From assembly GCA_043228905.1 (NCBI GenBank), contig JBHGNT010001402.1, forward strand, positions 1-8,972: DNA of 8,972 bases, read 5' to 3'. A program made the translations under genes and the position numbers. Below are positions 1 through 8,972 of this stretch, piece after piece. The notes beneath the pieces are model-generated. The model did not search any database. It saw nothing but the letters and a program-made list of their open reading frames with translations, and was not told where the DNA came from. How positions within the stretch are numbered: position 1 is the first letter of the stretch; each line of letters starts with the position of its first letter. Source of the DNA: Azolla caroliniana (taxonomy: Eukaryota > Plantae > Polypodiophyta).

Positions 1-347
1 AATCGGGTGCTTCAATCCGTTGGGCAATTTGGATTGCCATATGGAATGTTGTCGGTCCCTGATCCATAACATGACGATATAGATCATGTCGTAACCATGG
101 TAGTAGGAAGTACAGCTTCATGGTCTCCTTCATGTTGGGGTCGACTCGAAGTAGTAGTTGTTTTAGCTTGACGGAAGTTGTGCCACCGGCTCGTTGGGTT
201 GTTGCCGGAGACTGTTTATTTGTTGTAGAGCAGATTTTGTCACATCATTGTTAGCGAAATGTTGTATGAGTTGCTCCTACAAATAGTGCCAATCGTTCTT
301 GATTTCTTCCGGTTGTTGTATAAACCACGTGGCGGCTACATGCTCAA
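1..347 (-). pseudogene. gag: Ty3/Gypsy-like LTR retrotransposon gag, 3' part
   Basis: Manual translation: EHVAATWFIQQPEEIKNDWHYL*EQLIQHFANNDVTKSALQQINSLRQQPNEPVAQ, frameshift near 175, then SVKLKQLLLRVDPNMKETMKLYFLLPWLRHDLYRHVMDQGPTTFHMAIQIAQRIE. This is a typical retrotransposon capsid pattern (A..W, W..L...L...F, L.Q...E.V, P.T...AI..A...E). In-frame stop at 277-279. Confidence 0.85.
344..347 (+). repeat. 4-bp target site duplication, left copy (TCAA)
   Basis: Directly abuts the left TIR and is identical to 7358-7361. Confidence 0.93.
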
Positions 348-372
348 GGGTAAAAGCATGCGAGTGGAAACA
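348..372 (+). repeat. Left terminal inverted repeat (25 bp)
   Basis: GGGTAAAAGCATGCGAGTGGAAACA versus the reverse complement of 7333-7357, GGGTGAAAGCATGCGAGTGGAAACA: one mismatch at position 5. Confidence 0.96.
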
Positions 373-702
373 CTATTATAGCTAATTAGCTACTAAAATG
401 GCCATAGCTAATTAGCTATTTGTTTAGCTAGTCTTTCTTGTGGGAAAATCAAATATTTGAAAAACTAATTTATGAAAAAACTCAAATATTTGAACTTCTG
501 TTTCAGACGTAGTGGAACTTGGGGAATATCACCATCATCTAAGGTCGACTTCAATGTCATCAATTTCCTGTTTAGCCTAAGTCTGATTTTGAACGCAGAT
601 GGAGTACTCAGAGCACGAACGCAGACGTAGCTCCCGCAACAGCAAAAAATCGACATTGCAGATTGAGAGCTACAACACAGAACCCGCTCGATCATCGTCC
701 AG

Positions 703-798
703 GTATGTTTCAGTTACAGAAACCCCAAACATTTGTTTTTTCTTTTTGACTACTGTCTGAACTTTGGTGCCGATTCATATTTCCCCAAAATCGAATAG
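703..798 (+). other. Possible 5'-UTR intron of the accessory gene
   Basis: Strong donor CAG|GTATGT at 703, T-rich interior, candidate acceptor AATAG ending at 798, upstream of the ATG at 827. Confidence 0.45.
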
Positions 799-826
799 GG
801 CGAAGTCCTTGGAGTCCCATACAAGG

Positions 827-2752
827 ATGTCTCGCAAATCGGGGAGTAGCAACAGGTGTGTTTATATTACTTTTTTTGTGTTTAATCCTGTCTTTAGTGA
901 TTAGGGTTTGTGATTGAAATTTCTGATTAGGGTTTGTGATTGAAATTTCTGATTAGGGTTTTTGATTATAAATTTCTGATTAGAATTTCTGAATAGGGTT
1001 TCTGGTTACAAATTTTGATTACAAATTAGAATTTCTGAATAGGGTTTTTGTTTATAAATTTCTGCTTAGGATTTCTGATTAGGGTTTGTGATTGAAATTT
1101 TTTATTAGGGTTTCTGATTGAAATTTCTGATTAGGGTTTTTATTATAAATTTCTGATTAGAATTTCTGAATAAGGTTTCTGGTTACAAACTTCTGATTAC
1201 AGATTTTGATTAGGGTTTCTGATTTCAAACTTCTGATTACAGATTTTGATTAGGGTTTCTGATTTCAAATTTCTGAATACAAATTATGATTAGGGTTTCT
1301 GATTTGCTAAGTTAAAGATTTTGCACCATTTTTGTTGTTGTTGATTGGGGTTTTTGATTCTCACATATTCTGATTTTGCACTATTTCTGATTTCTGAAAT
1401 GATATTTCAGATGGCTCGTTCCTCCGTATACGAGAGTGTTAAACTTCGCAAAATTTTGCGAGACAAAGGAGGACTTCCACAACACCTATGGTCTGTCACT
1501 CGAGGGTGTTGACCCTGCTGTCCTAAGTGATAAATTGATCAGTGATATAGACTGGATGACAGTATATACAGTGCCTAGAGTCAAAGGCAAGGTCAAGTTG
1601 AAGCATGTACGAGCCGACTTGTACGATGACTGCATGAGACTGCACCAGAAAGTTCATCAGGAGATCCCAGTCAACAATGAGTTGTCAGTTTCATTTGCTA
1701 GAGCATTTGCATATGAGTACTGCAAAACAGCGAAGGAATCTAGAGACCCTGAAATGTATAGGGTAGCTTGGGCAGTCTATGGTGAGGCATCGGTAAAAAG
1801 ATGCCGAAAGATGGGGACCTTGGCACAAAAAATAGACAGATTTTGGAGCATGGCAGCTGTTGATGCAACTGCCGACTCCCAGCAAGACCGGGGGCATACA
1901 CCACACCGACACCCAAGGAAAGCCAATGTCGATGATACAGGTGAGACATTGGTTAGCTATATGCTAAAAAATGTCCATGAAGCCTGTGAGACATTGGCAT
2001 TTTTTAAGACTAATTTAGAGAAAGCCACAATGGCTTCTGCAATGGAGAGCAAAGTTACTTCTGCTGTTACAACAATTAGAAATAAGATTCAGGTAACTAT
2101 TGTTTTGCTGGTATGTGATTGTGTTATAAATAACGGGTAAAATGTGCTAATCAAGCATTATCTGGAATAGGTTGCGCAACAGGAGCTTGAATTAGAGGGG
2201 CCACTGGATCCCCAGCGTAAAATAGAACTGCAAATAGAGATCCAGGTTCTTTCAATGAACCTGGACCTTCTAGGTGTAAATACTGTTGCAGATTACAATT
2301 TGGATAAGCTTCAAGTAAGTTAACGATTCCTGAGCAAAGTTGGTGTATCTTTCAACAACAAGAATAATTAATCGGTAAATTTCTCTGTTGCGTTGAAGGA
2401 ACAATACATTCATCAAGAACAGGTAGTTAGCTGCCTTAAGAAGAAGCTACATTTTGTGGAGGGAATGGTAAGGACCAGACAGGATTTGGACCTGAACATT
2501 CTTGCTCCCTTACCAAATGAAGTAGAACCAGAAAATGATTTATTGACAGTTCAAGCACGTTGCATCGCTTGCGGGTTAGGTGTGGAGGACAAAACTGCGT
2601 CTTTGTTGGTTCACCTACAACCATGCAACCACACATACCATCTGCTTTGTTTTCAACATGCCTGTCGAATTGCTGCATTCTGTTTGGGAGATTGCAGTAC
2701 AACTCTACCAAATGAGTGGAGAAAACAAACAGGTATACCATACTGTAGCTAA
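827..2752 (+). CDS. Spliced transposon accessory gene, ~402 aa: unassigned N-terminal domain, coiled-coil-like region, C-terminal RING-H2-like zinc finger (putative E3 ligase)
   Basis: Predicted exons 827-855, 1411-2092, 2171-2314, 2399-2752 (1,209 nt, no internal stop). All three introns are GT-AG and frame-compatible (AG|gtgtgt..ttcag|A; CAG|gtaact..aatag|G; CAA|gtaagt..tgaag|G). Protein MSRKSGSSNRWLVPPYTRVLNF...CIAC-x16-CNHTYHLLC-x10-CLGDC...W. The model joins ORFs 1436-2140 and 2393-2752. Confidence 0.8.
899..1305 (+). repeat. Telo-box-containing minisatellite (~26-bp unit GATTAGGGTTTGTGATTGAAATTTCT plus 13/39-40-bp variants) in intron 856-1410
   Basis: About 11 copies of TAGGGTTT (reverse complement of telo-box AAACCCTA), with first units at 899, 925 and 951. 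Confidence 0.9.
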
Positions 2753-3376
2753 TAAGCTTAGTCTTTTCTAATTAGCTATCCTACTAGCTAATTAGCTACT
2801 GGCAGCTAATGAGCTACTAGCTAATTAGCTATCCTAGTAGCTAATTAGCTATGGTACTAGCTAATTAGCTAGTACCATAGTTGTGTAAAAAAGCTAAATA
2901 GCTATCCTACTAGCTAATTAGCCACTGGCAACTAATTAGCTATCCTAGTACCTAATTAGCTACTGCCATAGTTGTGTAAAGTAGCTAATAAGCTATCCTA
3001 GTAGCTAGTTAGCTATGGTACTAGCTAATTAGCTAGTACCATAGTTGTGTAAAAAAGCTAATTAGCTATCCTACTAGCTAATTAGCTACTGGCAACTAAT
3101 TAGCAATCCTACTAGCTAATTAGCTATCCTACTAGCTAATTAGCTATCATAGTAGCTAATTAGCTACTGACATAATTGTGTAAAGTAGCTAATAAGCTAT
3201 CCTAGTAGCTAGTTAGCTATGGTACTAGCTAATTAGCTAGTACCATAGTTGTGTAAAAAAGCTAATTAGCTATCCTACTAGCTAATTAGCTATCCTACTA
3301 GCTAATTAGCTACTGACATAGTTGTGTAAAGTAGCTAATAAGCTATCCTAGTAGCTAATTAGCTACTGGCAGCTAA
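2746..3376. repeat. Palindromic satellite array A (core TAGCTAATTAGCTA, ~20-bp units, higher-order blocks marked by TTGTGTAAA)
   Basis: Directly visible; lies between the two convergent genes and contains three perfect 32-bp palindromes at 2849-2880, 3013-3044 and 3217-3248. Confidence 0.95.
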
Positions 3377-5934
3377 CTTCACAGAGATCAATATTTCACT
3401 ACTCAATTCATTTGGACACCACCTAAATCTAGTAGGGCCACAATCTTGACATAAACCCATGACACATTTATGAATATGGAAGATAGCGTCAGTTTCTCTC
3501 GGACACAATATTGAATCTAATAAATAACTCATGGAAGAGATAACGTGCTCAGATGATTTACACTCCTCTTGCGGGCTTGATCGACAGATTGGGCACCCAC
3601 ATGTGCAAACTGTATTAGTTAGGGATGCGCTATGGTGACGTAGTAGATTAACAGAGTCCTTCAGAAAACCCATCTGTACATGGTAAATGCAACAACATGT
3701 GTATCGATCCTTTAAGCGTCTCACAAAGTGTGGCTTAAGAGACTCGAATGTTCGTAGTTGAACTTTGATAGTTGGATGCATTCGTTTGAACCTAATAAAT
3801 AAATCGACCTGCGTAATAAAGGGGAATTAGTTATTCTCGTAACTAGCTAACTATCCTAGTAGCTAATTAGTTGTCCTAGTAGCTAATTAGCTATCATGGT
3901 AGTTAATTAGCTGTCGTAGTAGCTAATTAGCTATCATGGTAGCTAATTAGCTATTCTAGTAGCTAATTAGCTATCATGGTAGCTAATTAGCTGTCGTAGT
4001 AGCTAATTAGCTATCATGGTAGCTAATTAGCTGTCCTAGTAGCTAATTGGTTGTCCTAGTAGCTAATTAGCTATCATGGTAGCTAATTAGCTGTCATAGT
4101 AGCTAATTAGCTATTCTAGTAGCTAATTGGTTGTCCTAGAAGCTAATTAGCTATCATGGTAGCTAATTAGCTATCGTAGTAGCTAATTAGCTATCATGGT
4201 AGCTAATTAGCTATTCTAGTAGCTAATTAGCTATTCTAGTAGCTAATTAGCTATCATGGTAGCTAATTAGTTGTCGTAGTAGCTAATTAGCTATCATGGT
4301 AGCTAATTAGCTGTCCTAGTAGCTAATTAGTTGTCCTAGTAGCTAATTAGCTATCATGGTAGCTAATTAGCTGCTCTAGTAGCTAATTAGCTATCATGGT
4401 GGCTAATTAGCTATTCTAGTAACTAATTAGCTATCATGGTAGCTAATTAGCTGGTCTAGTAGCTAATTAGCTATCATGGTGGCTAATTAGCTTTCCTAGT
4501 AACTAATTAGCTATCATGGTAGCTAATTAGTTGGTCTAGTAGCTAATTAGCTATCGTGGTAGCTAATTAGCTGGTCTAGTAGCTAATTAGCTATAATGGT
4601 GGCTGATTAGCTTTCCTAGTAACTAATTAGCTATCATGGTAGCTAATTAGCTGGTATAGTAGCTAATTAGCTATCATGGTAGCTAATTAGCTATCACGGT
4701 GGCTAATTAGCTGTCCTAGTAACTAATTAGCTATCATGGTAGCTAATTAGCTGGTCTAGTAGCTAATTAGCTATAATGGTGGCTAATTAGCTATCCTAAC
4801 TAATTAGCTATCATGGTAGTGGCTATTGAGAGTAGCCAGTTACCTATGTAGTAGCTATCATAGTAGCTAATTAGCTATCATGGTAGCTAATTAGCTTTCC
4901 TAGTAGCTAATTAGCTGGTAATAACGAAATAGCTAACTAGCTACCATGATAGCTAACTAGCTAGCAGTACAGCTAATTATCTGGTAGTACCTAAATTAGC
5001 TATTGAGAATAGCTAATTAGCTATCATGGTAGTAACTATTGAGAGTAGCTAGTTACCTATGTAGTAGCGATCCTAGTAGCTAACTGAGGTAAATGTAACT
5101 GATAAGCTAATTAGCTTTTCTGCTAACTGAGCTAATTAACTTTCCGAGTAGAGTCAAAACAAATGTTGAGATAAATGTAAATACCTAAGGTACATCAAGA
5201 AGATGAATGGGATGCTCCTCGTATTGATTTCTTCCAACACGTTTCCTGCATAAATCCTTTTTATTGGGTGAAACCCTACTCTCATTAGTCCAAAACATTG
5301 TGATTACATCCTTGATTTCAAATGTTATGGGTGTCATTGGCTTACATCTTGTAGTTAGCTTTAGTAGACTAGTTCCTTCACCCGAGGAAATTATACGGTT
5401 CATTGTATTGTACACTTTTTTTCTACTAACACCAATTACCTTAGATAGCTCACTGATGTTTATATCGTCAACATCACTATTAAGTAACATCATTAGACTA
5501 GATCTTTTTAAGACAAGATCATCTTCTGACCTACTCATGGATACGAAACTATTACGAAGATTATTTACTAAAATAGATGATATGTTTGCATTAAGACCAT
5601 CACAATCAACTAAGTCCTTTATCGATGGATCATTACATATTCCATAAAGTACTACCTTCTTTTCTTCATTGCTGATGTGCTTGGTTTGAACATTGAAATT
5701 GTCTACAACCTTTCTCTCTATGATGGTAGTCGCATTACTTACATTCTCAGCTAAACTATCCTTACCTTTACTGAGTGTGGCTTTCGTATCCTTCAACAAT
5801 TGACGATGTTTCCTTTTTTTTTCTGCCCAATAGTTTCGTATGGCTTGTTGTGTCCTGATAACATCATCCCTATCCTTATGATCATTGAGGGGTAATTCTA
5901 AACACCATTCTTCCCCTTCCATTTGGCTAGACAT
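3377..5934 (-). pseudogene. Sola-like transposase, N-terminal ~394 codons only; nonsense codon and no catalytic domain
   Basis: Exon 5934-5185 has an HTH-like ISELSKVIGVSRKKVY and FW...SRVSPNKKD...HLL. Donor TAG|GTATTT at 5184; acceptor with CTAAT branch point and TTACGCAG ending at 3809. Exon 3808-3377 reads VDLFIRFKRMHPTIKVQLRTFESLKPHFV...TCCCIYH...CP...C..G.C..CG. This resembles the Sola2-type SR..P.KKD / F...HP......F..L(R/K)P / C.C..H succession. The last codon of exon 1 is TAG (probably ex-CAG). Confidence 0.75.
3843..5138. repeat. Palindromic satellite array B (14-bp palindrome + 6-bp spacer, 20-bp period) filling the transposase intron
   Basis: About 47 units in exact 20-bp register from ~3860 to ~4795, then degenerate to ~5138; lies within predicted intron 3809-5184. 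Confidence 0.95.
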
Positions 5935-6269
5935 GTTAAAACCCTAAATTTCCAGAAAAAAAAACAAGTATTAAAGATGGCTATGGGCAACAACAATACA
6001 CAAAAATATTCCACACAATACACAAGATTAGACACAACAATACACAAGATAATCAATAGACAGAAAAGTTATTGCAATCCAAGACCAAACAGTAGAGGAT
6101 TTCACTCTGTTGGATCCAACAGTTGAGGAGGCGATCCAAGACCGACCAATGGCAACAACTGAGTGTAGAATGTTGCCGTTGGATGAGTGAACTCCGTCAA
6201 ATCGAAATGTGGAAGCAATCCGGGACTGGACAGTAGTGGCAACTGAGTATAGAATGATGGCAATGGAGG

Positions 6270-7004
6270 AGAGAACCCCGTCAGATTGAACAGTTACCGA
6301 TGATGCTTGAAACGCACATAGAAGGCACTTGAGAATAGAGTGGCATAGAGAAGAGAACCCCGTCAGATTGAACAGTTACCAATGATGCTTGAAACGCACA
6401 GTAGCGGCCCCTGAGTGAGAGTGGAAAAGAGAAGAGAACCCCGTCAGATTGAACAGTTACCAATGATGCTTGAAACGCACAGTAGCGGCCCCTGAGTGAG
6501 AGTGGAAAAGAGAAGAGAACCCCGTCAGATTGAATAGCTCTTTGATTATGCTTGGAACGCACAGTAGCAACCCCTGAGTGTAGAGTGGCAAAGAGAAGAG
6601 AACCCCGTCAGATTGAACAGCTCTTTGATGATGCTTGGAACGCACAGCAGCGGCCCCTGAGTGTAGAGTGGCACAGAGAAGAGAACCCCCTCAGATTGAA
6701 CAGCTCTTTGATGATGCTTGGAACGCACAGTAATGGCCCCTGAGTGTAGAGTGGCACAGAGAAGAGAACCCCCTCAGATTGAACAGCTCTTTGATGATGC
6801 TTGGAACGCACAGTAATGGCCCCTGAGTGTAGAGTGGCACAGAGAAGAGAACCCCGTCAGATTGAATAGCTCTTTGATGATGCTTGGAATGCACAGTAGT
6901 GGCCCCTGAGTGTAGAGTGTCACAGAGAAGAGAACCCTGTCAGATTGAGCAGCTCTTTGATGATGCTTGGAACGCACAGTAGCGGCCCCTCAGTGTAGAG
7001 TGGC
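6270..7004. repeat. 81-83-bp tandem repeat, 9 units, upstream of the transposase
   Basis: GAACC anchors at 6273, 6355, 6436, 6517, 6600, 6683, 6766, 6849 and 6932. Unit ~AGAGAAGAGAACCCCGTCAGATTGAACAGCTCTTTGATGATGCTTGGAACGCACAGTAGCGGCCCCTGAGTGTAGAGTGGCAC. Degenerate relics near 6159 and 6243. Confidence 0.96.
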
Positions 7005-7332
7005 GGCAGGTGGACTCGATAGGGTTTAGCAACAGTGGTAGCAACTAACCCACAGTACTCAACTAGAGATGGCCTACGTGATGTGGCAAAGGATCATGCA
7101 TAATGGACCTAGGAATTCGATATATAATTTATGGTACACATTTATGGTGCACACATCAATTTATGTTGCACATTTATGGCACTCATTTACATATGTAATT
7201 AAAACACTCTAGTATTTTCAATGGTAGTTTTTTGCATACTTAATTTATTAATGATGGCTTTTTACTAAAATGACTATTTATCAATGGTAGCTTTTTGCAT
7301 AGCTAATTAGCTATGTCAAGGACATAGCTAAT

Positions 7333-7357
7333 TGTTTCCACTCGCATGCTTTCACCC
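7333..7357 (-). repeat. Right terminal inverted repeat (25 bp)
   Basis: TGTTTCCACTCGCATGCTTTCACCC, 24/25 inverted match to 348-372. Confidence 0.96.
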
Positions 7358-7361
7358 TCAA
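7358..7361 (+). repeat. 4-bp target site duplication, right copy (TCAA)
   Basis: Directly abuts the right TIR; keeping one copy gives minus-strand ACA ATA TTT GAG CAT GTA (TIFEHV) in frame. Confidence 0.93.
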
Positions 7362-7665
7362 ATATTGTTCGCATCTCCAATGCTTTTCTTTCATCATTCC
7401 AATAGTGATAGCTTGCGACGAGGTCAAAATGATCTAGCCAAGCTAGTATATCCTCTGTGGGGAGACCGGAGAATGATCTTGGACGTATTCGGGAATCTTT
7501 TCTTTGATCACTTATTGTTCCTATAGATTGAGATTGAAAGGTGAGCCATGTTATGAGTGCTTGATTCGTGTGATTACTTGAATCATCATCGTAGACATCG
7601 CTTGGAACATTTGCTCTAGCTAATTCGGGTAAAAATGAAGGTTTAAAATTTGTTAATACCGTCAA
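7358..7665 (-). pseudogene. gag: Ty3/Gypsy-like gag, 5' part (same gene as 1-347)
   Basis: ORF 7303-7665 contains PRSFSGLPTEDILAWLDHFDLVASYHYWNDERKALEMRTIF, the P..F.G...ED...W...F......W gag N-terminal pattern. The ORF's last residues (GESMRVET...) are read-through into the TIR. True start codon uncertain. Confidence 0.85.
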
Positions 7666-7876
7666 ATTTTGCTAAGGCCAAAGCAATAGTACATGTATTA
7701 GTAGTTACAAATTACAATTCATAGGCTATAGCATATAGTTTTATTTGAGAAGGGTAAATGTGTAAACATATGTTATGTGATATGATAAAGGAGAAAAAGT
7801 GCCCGAACATATGCATAGTGTGAAAATAAACTTAGGGCTTCTTCTCTTTTCAGCCCATTCCTCTCTTTTGCCTGTT

Positions 7877-7892
7877 TCTCTCTCTCTCTCTC
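7877..7892 (+). repeat. (TC)8 microsatellite in a pyrimidine-rich tract
   Basis: Directly visible. Confidence 0.85.
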
Positions 7893-8068
7893 TTTCTCTA
7901 GCCACGCCATCACACCACAATACATTTCACACATGAGCTCTCTGACATATATTCTCGACATGTTCAAGCCCATCTCTCCTCCCTTGATCCATCCCTACCT
8001 TTAGAGAGCCTTAGTATGTAAAACTCACACACATCCTTCACTCCGCAACAATTAGCAGTTTCCCATAT

Positions 8069-8532
8069 ATGAAACACTTCAATCAAGGTAGATTAGGATC
8101 TATGCCACAAAATAGATGGTATGATGACGATTGTAGGAACTTACATAGACAACTTACAATATTGCAACTCAGTGGTAGTATTACCTCAGTACAAGCTCGC
8201 AAAGAAATGCACAAGATGGCACGTCATAAGAGACGAGCATGGGAGGCATCCCAATCTTGGGAAATCTACCATATGCTCATGAGTAGCGATTGCGCCACTG
8301 CATGGAAGAGATTACGGGAACTAAGACCACAAACACCCATCGAAGATCCTGAAACCTGGCACACATATAAAGAGAGACTTTACCAATTCCCAAACCAACC
8401 ACCCATTCCAATGCCTTCTACACCCCGACCTACCGTGGGGACACTTTTCATGACCTCTAGGGTCGTGAAGGTCATAAAGAAATTACAACATAGGAAGTCC
8501 ATGGACCACAGAAGATTGCGAGCAGAATACAT
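8069..8532 (+). pseudogene. Non-LTR retrotransposon (LINE) ORF2 fragment: linker between endonuclease and reverse transcriptase
   Basis: WYDDDCR (W.D.EC motif), AWKRLR, W.....LY, then F....V...IKKLQHRKSMDHRRLRAEYI resembling the K(A/S).G.D.I..E motif at the start of the LINE RT region. The sequence changes abruptly at 8533. Confidence 0.8.
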
Positions 8533-8972
8533 TGTTGGGAACACCGTCTTCTAATGCGGAACAAGCTCAACACTCTTCTAAGATAAGATCGTAAATGGAT
8601 GCAAGATCATAGCTTTGATGGCAACAAAGAAAGAAAGTAAAAGACAACTACTTTGCAAGAGAGAGAGAGTTAGAGTTCAATGAAGTTTATTACAAACTTT
8701 TTAGAAAATGAGCAACCAACCCATTGTCGTGAAGATTTCCGGCTATAGTGTGAAACCGGGGTGGAATAGGGCAAGTCGGTGGTTCAACATGTGCACATGT
8801 ATAGTAGGAAACGGTGTATAGAATAAAGGGGAGTATTTGTCCCACATTGTAACGCCCTCCCCTCCTTGGTCTATAAAAGGAGGGAGGGGTCCCTTGTTGA
8901 GGGGTTGCCCATTTTGAGTTAGGAGGGTATATTGTTAGATTTAGGGTTAGACAGTTTCTCTTATTCTTGCTT
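8533..8972 (+). mobile_element. Probable LTR of an LTR retrotransposon, running off the window
   Basis: Starts with TGTTGG exactly where LINE similarity ends; CTATAAAAGG TATA box at 8871-8880; TTAGGGTT and a pyrimidine-rich tract downstream. The other end is not visible. Confidence 0.6.
8855..8889 (+). promoter_or_regulatory. TATA box within an inverted repeat (putative LTR promoter)
   Basis: CCCTCCCCTCCTT (8855-8867), TATAAAA (8872-8878), AAGGAGGGAGGGG (8877-8889). Confidence 0.55.

Follow-up and report, generated by a model that had tools for sequence, protein, structure and literature searches.

A palindromic word at the ends and in the putatively intronic arrays of a Sola2-type transposon of Azolla caroliniana: a candidate address for an element-encoded protein

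Sequence-specific anti-silencing by transposons has so far been shown, in the literature as accessible to us, for Mutator-like and Spm elements of flowering plants. The Arabidopsis VANDAL/VANC system combines an accessory gene with a short family-specific motif repeated in tandem in introns, intergenic DNA and terminal non-coding DNA (PMC5735166, PMC10398659); target motifs of VANC21 lie in introns, and the unrelated element AT9TSD1 carries the VANC6 motif (PMC5735166). For Spm TnpA and the AtMu1 transposase, family-specific motifs are clustered near the element ends, and a high motif density is needed for targeting (bioRxiv 10.64898/2026.08.24.746577). In Ectocarpus, Sola1-1_Ec32 has a ParB-methyltransferase gene on the opposite strand, which has been proposed to bind and modify its own element (PMC12477816), while Sola clusters are rare among active plant terminal inverted repeat (TIR) elements (PMC12973397). 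Here, we describe a Sola2-type DNA transposon in an 8,972-nucleotide stretch of the Azolla caroliniana genome (GenBank assembly GCA_043228905.1, contig JBHGNT010001402.1, positions 1 to 8,972; hereafter the window), in which the perfect 14-bp palindrome TAGCTAATTAGCTA occurs at both element ends and in arrays within predicted introns. We suggest, with a probability of about 0.45, that this palindrome is the family's cis address for an element-encoded protein, most likely its accessory protein, that would keep cognate copies transcribed or unsilenced.

The window family is like VANDAL/VANC in its accessory gene, its tandem motifs that differ between families and lie in non-coding DNA, and the presence of an unrelated element carrying the motif. 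It differs in being a Sola2 and not a Mutator element, in the perfect palindromy of its motif, in the RING and NIF-like parts of its accessory protein, and in that any regulatory role is here a prediction from sequence. We take the VANC domain to be DUF1985; no VANC-type Pfam family was found on the exon for the accessory N-terminal domain (N-domain) or on 45 longer homologs, by a scan that may miss distant kinship. The effects described for TnpA and AtMu1 are confined to termini, whereas most word copies of the window family lie deep in introns; moreover, TnpA derives from a transposase, whereas no such link was seen for the accessory N-domain. On this comparison, the family resembles VANDAL/VANC in layout and TnpA in its clustered motifs, and we regard it as a member of neither. 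Sola1-1_Ec32 is also large and likewise has its accessory gene on the opposite strand, but it belongs to the Sola1 group, has a different accessory protein, and palindrome arrays are unmentioned in the accessible text of that report (PMC12477816).

The palindrome and the Sola2-type element that carries it

The window element spans 348-7357 and is bounded by 25-bp TIRs and a 4-bp target site duplication (TSD; Table 1). We found 39 exact copies of TAGCTAATTAGCTA in the window, compared with none in each of 200 shuffled sequences. The left end has two of them and the right end one, and arrays A and B contain 13 and 23, respectively. At up to three mismatches, the count rose to 92. The original prediction, made from the letters of the window alone, had placed the palindrome just inside the left TIR (379-392 and 405-418) and just inside the right TIR, with a partial copy abutting the latter. 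Exact matches were present at both left positions and at 7300-7313, and the partial copy TAGCTAATT abuts the right TIR at 7325-7333, where it falls in the second arm of a hyphenated inverted repeat visible in the sequence (7305-7317 / AAG / 7321-7333). The dozens of copies announced for arrays A and B were also recovered, numbering 27 and 53, respectively, at up to two mismatches, and neither flank contained a copy even at up to three mismatches, in agreement with the lack of full copies noted there. The sole palindrome trace outside the element in the window was a 7-bp half-site at 7617.

To these data we added a copy sample consisting of 22 facing TIR pairs, picked from the first 100 TIR matches listed, and the window copy. 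All 23 copies displayed a perfect 4-bp TSD of varied sequence, with two left and one right palindromes at fixed places, and contained from 8 to 65 exact palindromes each; array size varies, while the end motifs are fixed. The left and right TIRs of the window element match at 24 of 25 positions, and the 523-Mb genome contains 552 exact matches to the TIR pattern. Long copies measured 10.5-12.2 kb, the full-length element being about 11.7 kb, and the median difference over a 600-bp exon stretch was 0.7% (22 copies). We regard the family as a young, high-copy, Sola2-type DNA transposon. An assembly artefact was rejected in view of the 552 TIR matches, 19,622 genomic palindromes and perfect TSDs in all 23 copies. 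The window copy itself lacks about 4.7 kb at 3374-3376, a segment in which full copies have the remainder of array A, the acidic and NIF-like exons, the cluster of 3′ motifs and the DDD core of the transposase; because of this deletion and a premature stop closing the first transposase exon, it is non-autonomous. A non-autonomous element of about 297 bp with ends of the window-family type (L075:1303-1598; TSD ACTA) had an exact right motif and worn left motifs.

Genome-wide, TAGCTAATTAGCTA occurred 19,622 times, compared with 11 times for the reversed control word. Among the first 79 genomic sites listed, 74 lay in the Sola2 clade of the window family (for 37 of these, which were not fetched whole, the assignment relies on a TIR and a transposase match close by), five in one Ty1/copia long terminal repeat (LTR) family, and none was unassigned. 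In 600 kb taken mostly around transposase-like matches, and thus a biased sample, none of 109 sites fell outside the clade or the copia LTR. An independent genome-wide satellite was accordingly rejected (0/79 first-listed and 0/109 biased-sample sites outside transposons). The predicted link between motif and element is thus supported by the first-listed sites and by the conservation of the motif at both ends in the copy sample; it is not exclusive, since the copia family shares the motif.

Sola2 DNA transposons were reportedly described by Bao et al. in 2009. They have a 4-bp TSD, short TIRs and a DDD transposase motif series (PMC3627910, PMC10741241), and the window family is alike in all of these. 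The 4-bp TSD was found in 23/23 copies and in 4/4 copies of the related family F2, the TIRs are 25 bp long with 24/25 positions matching, and the transposase P0001 of a full copy (L034) contains DFAENY..Q.EIQS.HW, ISDD..HD, SDGAASQFK and W.FF.S.HGK...DG.G...KR, which by eye match the motifs of the published Sola2 alignment. At the level of sequence, TSD, TIR and motif series make the element one of Sola2 type, although the long transposase exon of P0001 gave no Pfam match. Named transposase homologs came from a moss, a liverwort, ferns and gymnosperms, a distribution that points to a host among the non-flowering land plants. CACTA transposons have CACTA ends and a 3-bp TSD, and this identity was rejected on the GGGT ends and 4-bp TSD of the element; a Mutator identity, which would entail a TSD of 7-12 bp (PMC10741241), was rejected on the Sola2-type transposase and the TSD length. 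Amoebozoan Sola2 elements prefer an AT-rich AWWT target, a preference not shown to define the group (PMC3627910), and the varied TSDs of the 23 copies do not follow it. Unlike Sola2 elements as described in the accessible literature, the window family has TSDs beyond AWWT, carries an accessory gene and holds its palindrome arrays in predicted introns. We found no description of such arrays in Sola2 in the literature searched, although one could exist in Repbase reports, in subscription journals or in supplements of bioRxiv papers, to which the search did not extend.

The GT-AG interval that holds array A follows the RING-like exon of the accessory gene. Both its donor and acceptor were detected in 17 of 23 copies, the six misses being four short, deleted or divergent copies and two outside the search pattern. 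The exons on either side of the array B intron stay in frame. Array CG content was 0 and 1.4 per 100 bp, compared with 3-6 in exons. Motif-array periods were within 0.15 helical turn of a whole number in 14 of 21 distinct cases versus 12 of 35 for other arrays (Fisher p 0.019; the periods are not independent). This comparison replaced a first test against random integers (p 0.00015), which was set aside because the spacings are multiples of one another.

Such arrays might have no protein partner and arise by slippage and gap repair of a hairpin-prone word, being tolerated in introns and having no effect beyond supplying double-stranded RNA or favouring deletions. Array length indeed varies widely among copies, the predicted RNA fold of the array intron is very stable (z -32), as expected of any palindrome array, and the breakpoint of the window deletion is a palindrome half-site, several short copies also being broken in or beside arrays. 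We nevertheless consider this origin quite improbable: the palindromic words persist across subfamilies while repeat units, periods and spacers turn over, the arrays of the window family and of F2 arose at different intron positions, the periods favour whole helical turns, and the LTR cluster described below is kept in 29/30 copies.

Different words in sister families

We compared the window family (F1) with two related families, F2 and the metagenome contig L152. F2 has 203 exact TIR matches in the genome and a transposase core about 47% identical to that of F1; all four fetched loci were complete. Its plan is the same as that of F1, including a distant accessory homolog, and no copy of the F1 word was found within two mismatches in these four loci. 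Instead, F2 displays TAGTACTA at the left end and AGTACT at the right end, and its arrays lie in places matching those of F1: a 52-bp array after the RING exon and a 146-bp array in the transposase intron, the latter at a different intron position from array B. Older F2 relatives keep TTAGTACTAA in 41-, 72-, 84- and ~93-bp units with unrelated spacers. L152, with 60% transposase identity, has one CTAATAGTG at its single visible end and a further 15 in the counterpart of the array B intron, and in its right-end inverted repeat the symmetry is kept while the arms are changed. The possibility that sister families have different motifs, raised in the original prediction, was thus borne out, with the F2 and L152 words each found at an end and in internal arrays. 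In a cross-table of end 9-mers and arrays, which was largely diagonal with two exceptions, F1 end 9-mers covered 252-294 positions per kb of F1 arrays, 0-1 of F2 arrays and 2-4 of exons.

The word could alternatively be bound by the transposase through its N-terminal helix-turn-helix (HTH), the end copies being transpososome sites and the arrays titrating the transposase or letting it activate transcription. This is somewhat unlikely in our estimate but a serious alternative, and several observations fit it. The end sites lie 7 to 45 bp inside the TIRs with fixed spacing in 23/23 copies, the right site is exact in the 297-bp non-autonomous copy with its TSD, the transposase has weak HTH matches (PF13551 on 2 of 14 homologs), and the predicted HTH differs strongly, by eye, between F1 and F2. 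AtMu1 transposase alone activates cognate copies, but it peaks at TIRs and not in introns (bioRxiv 10.64898/2026.08.24.746577). Furthermore, the predicted recognition helix is nearly identical in F1 and L152 despite the changed word, the HTH matches are under the Pfam cut-off, and the transposase would have to be an activator as well for an LTR to profit from its cluster. The model of the transposase N-terminus was poor (predicted local distance difference test (pLDDT) 45).

F1 matches dominated the searches for additional Sola2 families, and 9 of 10 loci obtained with a looser pattern had no transposase match. Of 20 sister loci fetched, only the four F2 loci had a true TIR pair and TSD, the rest being partial or nested. 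No array was seen on the metagenome contigs L164 and L165 (33-40% transposase matches), both of which are partial. We regarded the resemblance between TAGTACTA and the VANC21 motif YAGTATTAY as coincidental.

Palindromes in LTR retrotransposons and the proposed address

The LTRs of this copia family, about 450 bp long, carry a palindrome cluster in U3 near the LTR start (L073/L074, L072, L076, L187-L216). At least two palindromes (up to two mismatches) were present in the first 170 bp of 29 of the 30 best-matching copia LTRs, compared with a maximum of one in a Markov control; they are mostly 18 bp apart, and the cluster is expanded in some copies. The LTR pattern had 165 exact matches, many paired about 5 kb apart, a spacing that leaves little room for an extra gene. 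One copia site matched the transposon 3′ cluster at 15 of 18 flanking bases versus 9-11 for other regions (p 0.0006), so that the two clusters likely share descent, judging from these flanks. In full copies of the transposon, small clusters of 2-4 palindromes lie between the 3′ ends of the two genes, and a 255-bp unit with the small 3′ motif cluster occurs there in 1-4 tandem copies (e.g. L033/L034, L047/L048). A Ty3/gypsy LTR contains two or three F2 words (TTAGTACTAA-type) at one end at two loci (L169/L170, joined positions 3143-3544 and 8337-8770; L087/L088).

The original prediction had taken the palindrome for a binding site of a dimeric element-encoded protein, with the arrays as a loading platform or titration sink. 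This interpretation is partly supported, by the family linkage, the conserved end sites and the change of word between families, whereas the binder, its dimeric state and the loading or titration are putative. We propose that a two-fold symmetric protein would bind each family's word. Single sites at the ends would mark termini and promoters, and the intron arrays, which would be spliced from the mRNA and so be free to grow, would form a high-density landing pad. Word and protein would diverge together, so that each family addresses itself, and the copia LTR would have acquired a cluster and would borrow the activity of the element's regulator. The accessory protein is favoured as this regulator because the arrays are far from the ends, its gene is old and kept, and an LTR would benefit from an activator, whereas a site for transposition only would not serve it.

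Several points weigh against this proposal. The N-domain exon matches no known family in a Pfam scan, and the domain is only mildly basic (median net charge +2; isoelectric point above 8 in 58% of 69 homologs); its DNA binding is therefore only putative. The arrays are nearly CG-free, whereas VANC acts locally on CG methylation. The family words compared are three distinct ones. The F2 transposase-intron array shares only 3 full 9-mers per kb with F2 ends, AGTAC half-words reaching 38 per kb. Words of the F1 ends, of the TAATTAG type, also occur in the L152 array (37 per kb), so that the words are not strictly specific. Between the gypsy LTR and F2, the word is all that is common, no flank homology having been found. 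Finally, host homeodomain and SBP factors have sites similar to the cores TAATTA and GTAC, and both F1 and F2 words occur in clusters in unrelated LTRs, a pattern that agrees with hitch-hiking but also with a host factor.

The last two points, together with the 165 LTR pattern matches and a hAT-like element of the same genome with its own palindrome array, are what would be seen if the words were sites of host transcription or chromatin factors (homeodomain-like TAATTA, SBP-like GTAC), amplified for germline expression and used independently by several transposons. This explanation is unlikely in view of the first-listed sites, none of 79 outside transposons, and the mere 11 occurrences of the reversed control word. 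In addition, families differ in their word at the ends and in the arrays alike, and common descent of the copia cluster and the element's 3′ cluster looks more probable than separate evolution. The hAT-like case comprises 26 GAAATTTC palindromes at L180:5228-5664 (G000:C9 near 21.447 Mb). On one side lies a 701-aa frame, presumably similar to a BED-finger hAT transposase, and on the other a 609-aa frame arranged head to head with it; this is perhaps the same design in another superfamily.

A wider form of the proposed address, less likely than not, is that Sola2 elements of seed-free plants evolved programmable self-recognition independently of VANC and TnpA. An accessory DNA-binding fold without known structural relatives, joined to a RING and a dead C-terminal domain (CTD)-phosphatase domain, would read a palindrome particular to its family and amplified in helically phased intronic arrays, and unrelated LTRs would parasitise this system. 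If the address is real, it would add a third superfamily, in seed-free plants, to those with sequence-specific anti-silencing, and the word/protein pairs would make co-evolution testable. A DNA-binding domain with a novel sequence specificity, and a small tool for maintaining transgene activity, might also come of it, and an LTR sharing the address of a DNA transposon would clearly exemplify how one parasite can exploit the regulator of another.

The accessory gene and other features of the window

The accessory gene lies on the plus strand, convergent with the transposase gene. In full copies, it goes on with an acidic exon and then a NIF-like domain (Pfam NIF E 3.9e-7, above cut-off). The catalytic motif of FCP1/SCP (NIF) phosphatases is DxDxT; at this place, we found ELDKVL in the window family and DLNGVL in fern homologs, and the NIF/FCP1-like domain at L055:5090-5969, part of the sequence deleted from the window, is without the catalytic aspartate. 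The RING of the fern homolog P0244 scored E 8e-4, below cut-off. The F2 accessory protein appears to have another C-terminal part than the NIF-like domain.

A sequence search yielded 128 representatives of the N-domain, and by sequence the accessory gene appears old and kept. All ten homologs looked up were hypothetical proteins of the fern Adiantum nelumboides. Among 45 longer homologs scanned, two had NIF and one a weak RING, and the fern proteins P0197 and P0251 contain N-domain, coiled coil, RING-like and NIF parts in a single chain. The N-domain model was confident (pLDDT 93), with ten columns mostly lysine or arginine. Foldseek gave no match at E 0.001 and the best Z elsewhere was 2.3, from which newness of the fold does not follow; by sequence, solved structures matched only in coiled coils, and Atlas matches were all under 0.8. 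The homologs P0174, P0255, P0180, P0249, P0256 and P0263 combine the N-domain with gag, beta-propeller, nucleotidyltransferase, lipid-transfer or fasciclin parts; these are probably gene-prediction chimeras around insertions.

Table 1. Features of the window element and its borders, with window coordinates
Feature	Position	Strand	Basis or remark
Left TSD TCAA	344..347		4-bp TSD in 23/23 copies examined
Left TIR, 25 bp	348..372	+	552 exact genomic matches to TIR pattern, control 0
Subterminal palindrome copy 1	379..392		in 23/23 copies at equal position, up to 2 mismatches
Subterminal palindrome copy 2	405..418		half-site TTAGCTA follows at 424
13/40-bp array with 11 TAGGGTTT words (putative telo-boxes), no palindrome	898..1305	+	upstream of accessory coding exons
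Accessory first long coding exon: conserved ~135-aa N-domain, coiled-coil start	1412..2092	+	exon end inferred from GT donor
Predicted coiled-coil exon, accessory gene	2171..2314	+	inferred from AG/GT sites and by-eye likeness to homolog P0130
Predicted RING-like exon, accessory gene	2399..2732	+	Pfam RING matches weak, below cut-off
Array A, 20/18/33-bp units, 13 exact / 27 at up to 2 mismatches	2746..3372		truncated by deletion; predicted intron starts at 2733
Deletion junction, 3-bp microhomology TAA at palindrome half-site	3374..3376		comparison with full copies
Transposase long-exon remnant: Cys-rich start, catalytic part deleted	3374..3808	-	comparison with full copies
Predicted GT-AG transposase intron, 1376 bp, holding array B	3809..5184	-	both sites in 21/23 copies
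Array B, 20-bp unit, 40-bp higher order, 23 exact / 53 at up to 2 mismatches	3840..5142		within predicted transposase intron
Transposase N-terminal exon, weak HTH, premature stop at exon end in this copy	5185..5934	-	HTH_29 E 0.003, below cut-off
83-bp tandem array upstream of transposase, without palindrome	6230..7004		9.3 copies
Right subterminal palindrome	7300..7313		distance from end identical in 23/23 copies
Hyphenated inverted repeat, 13-bp arms and 3-bp gap	7305..7333		read from sequence
Right TIR	7333..7357	-	sequence comparison
Right TSD TCAA	7358..7361		sequence comparison

Two further arrays of the element are free of the palindrome. We take the TAGGGTTT words upstream of the accessory coding exons to be telo-boxes, which are bound by host TRB-type factors. 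The 83-bp array has 9.3 copies, with eight helical turns per unit, and older relatives have 84- and 86-bp versions. In the flanks of the element, minus-strand frames at 7303-7671 and 2-244 had no Pfam match and presumably resemble LTR-retrotransposon gag; because such gag-like frames are present in both flanks, the element likely inserted into a retrotransposon.

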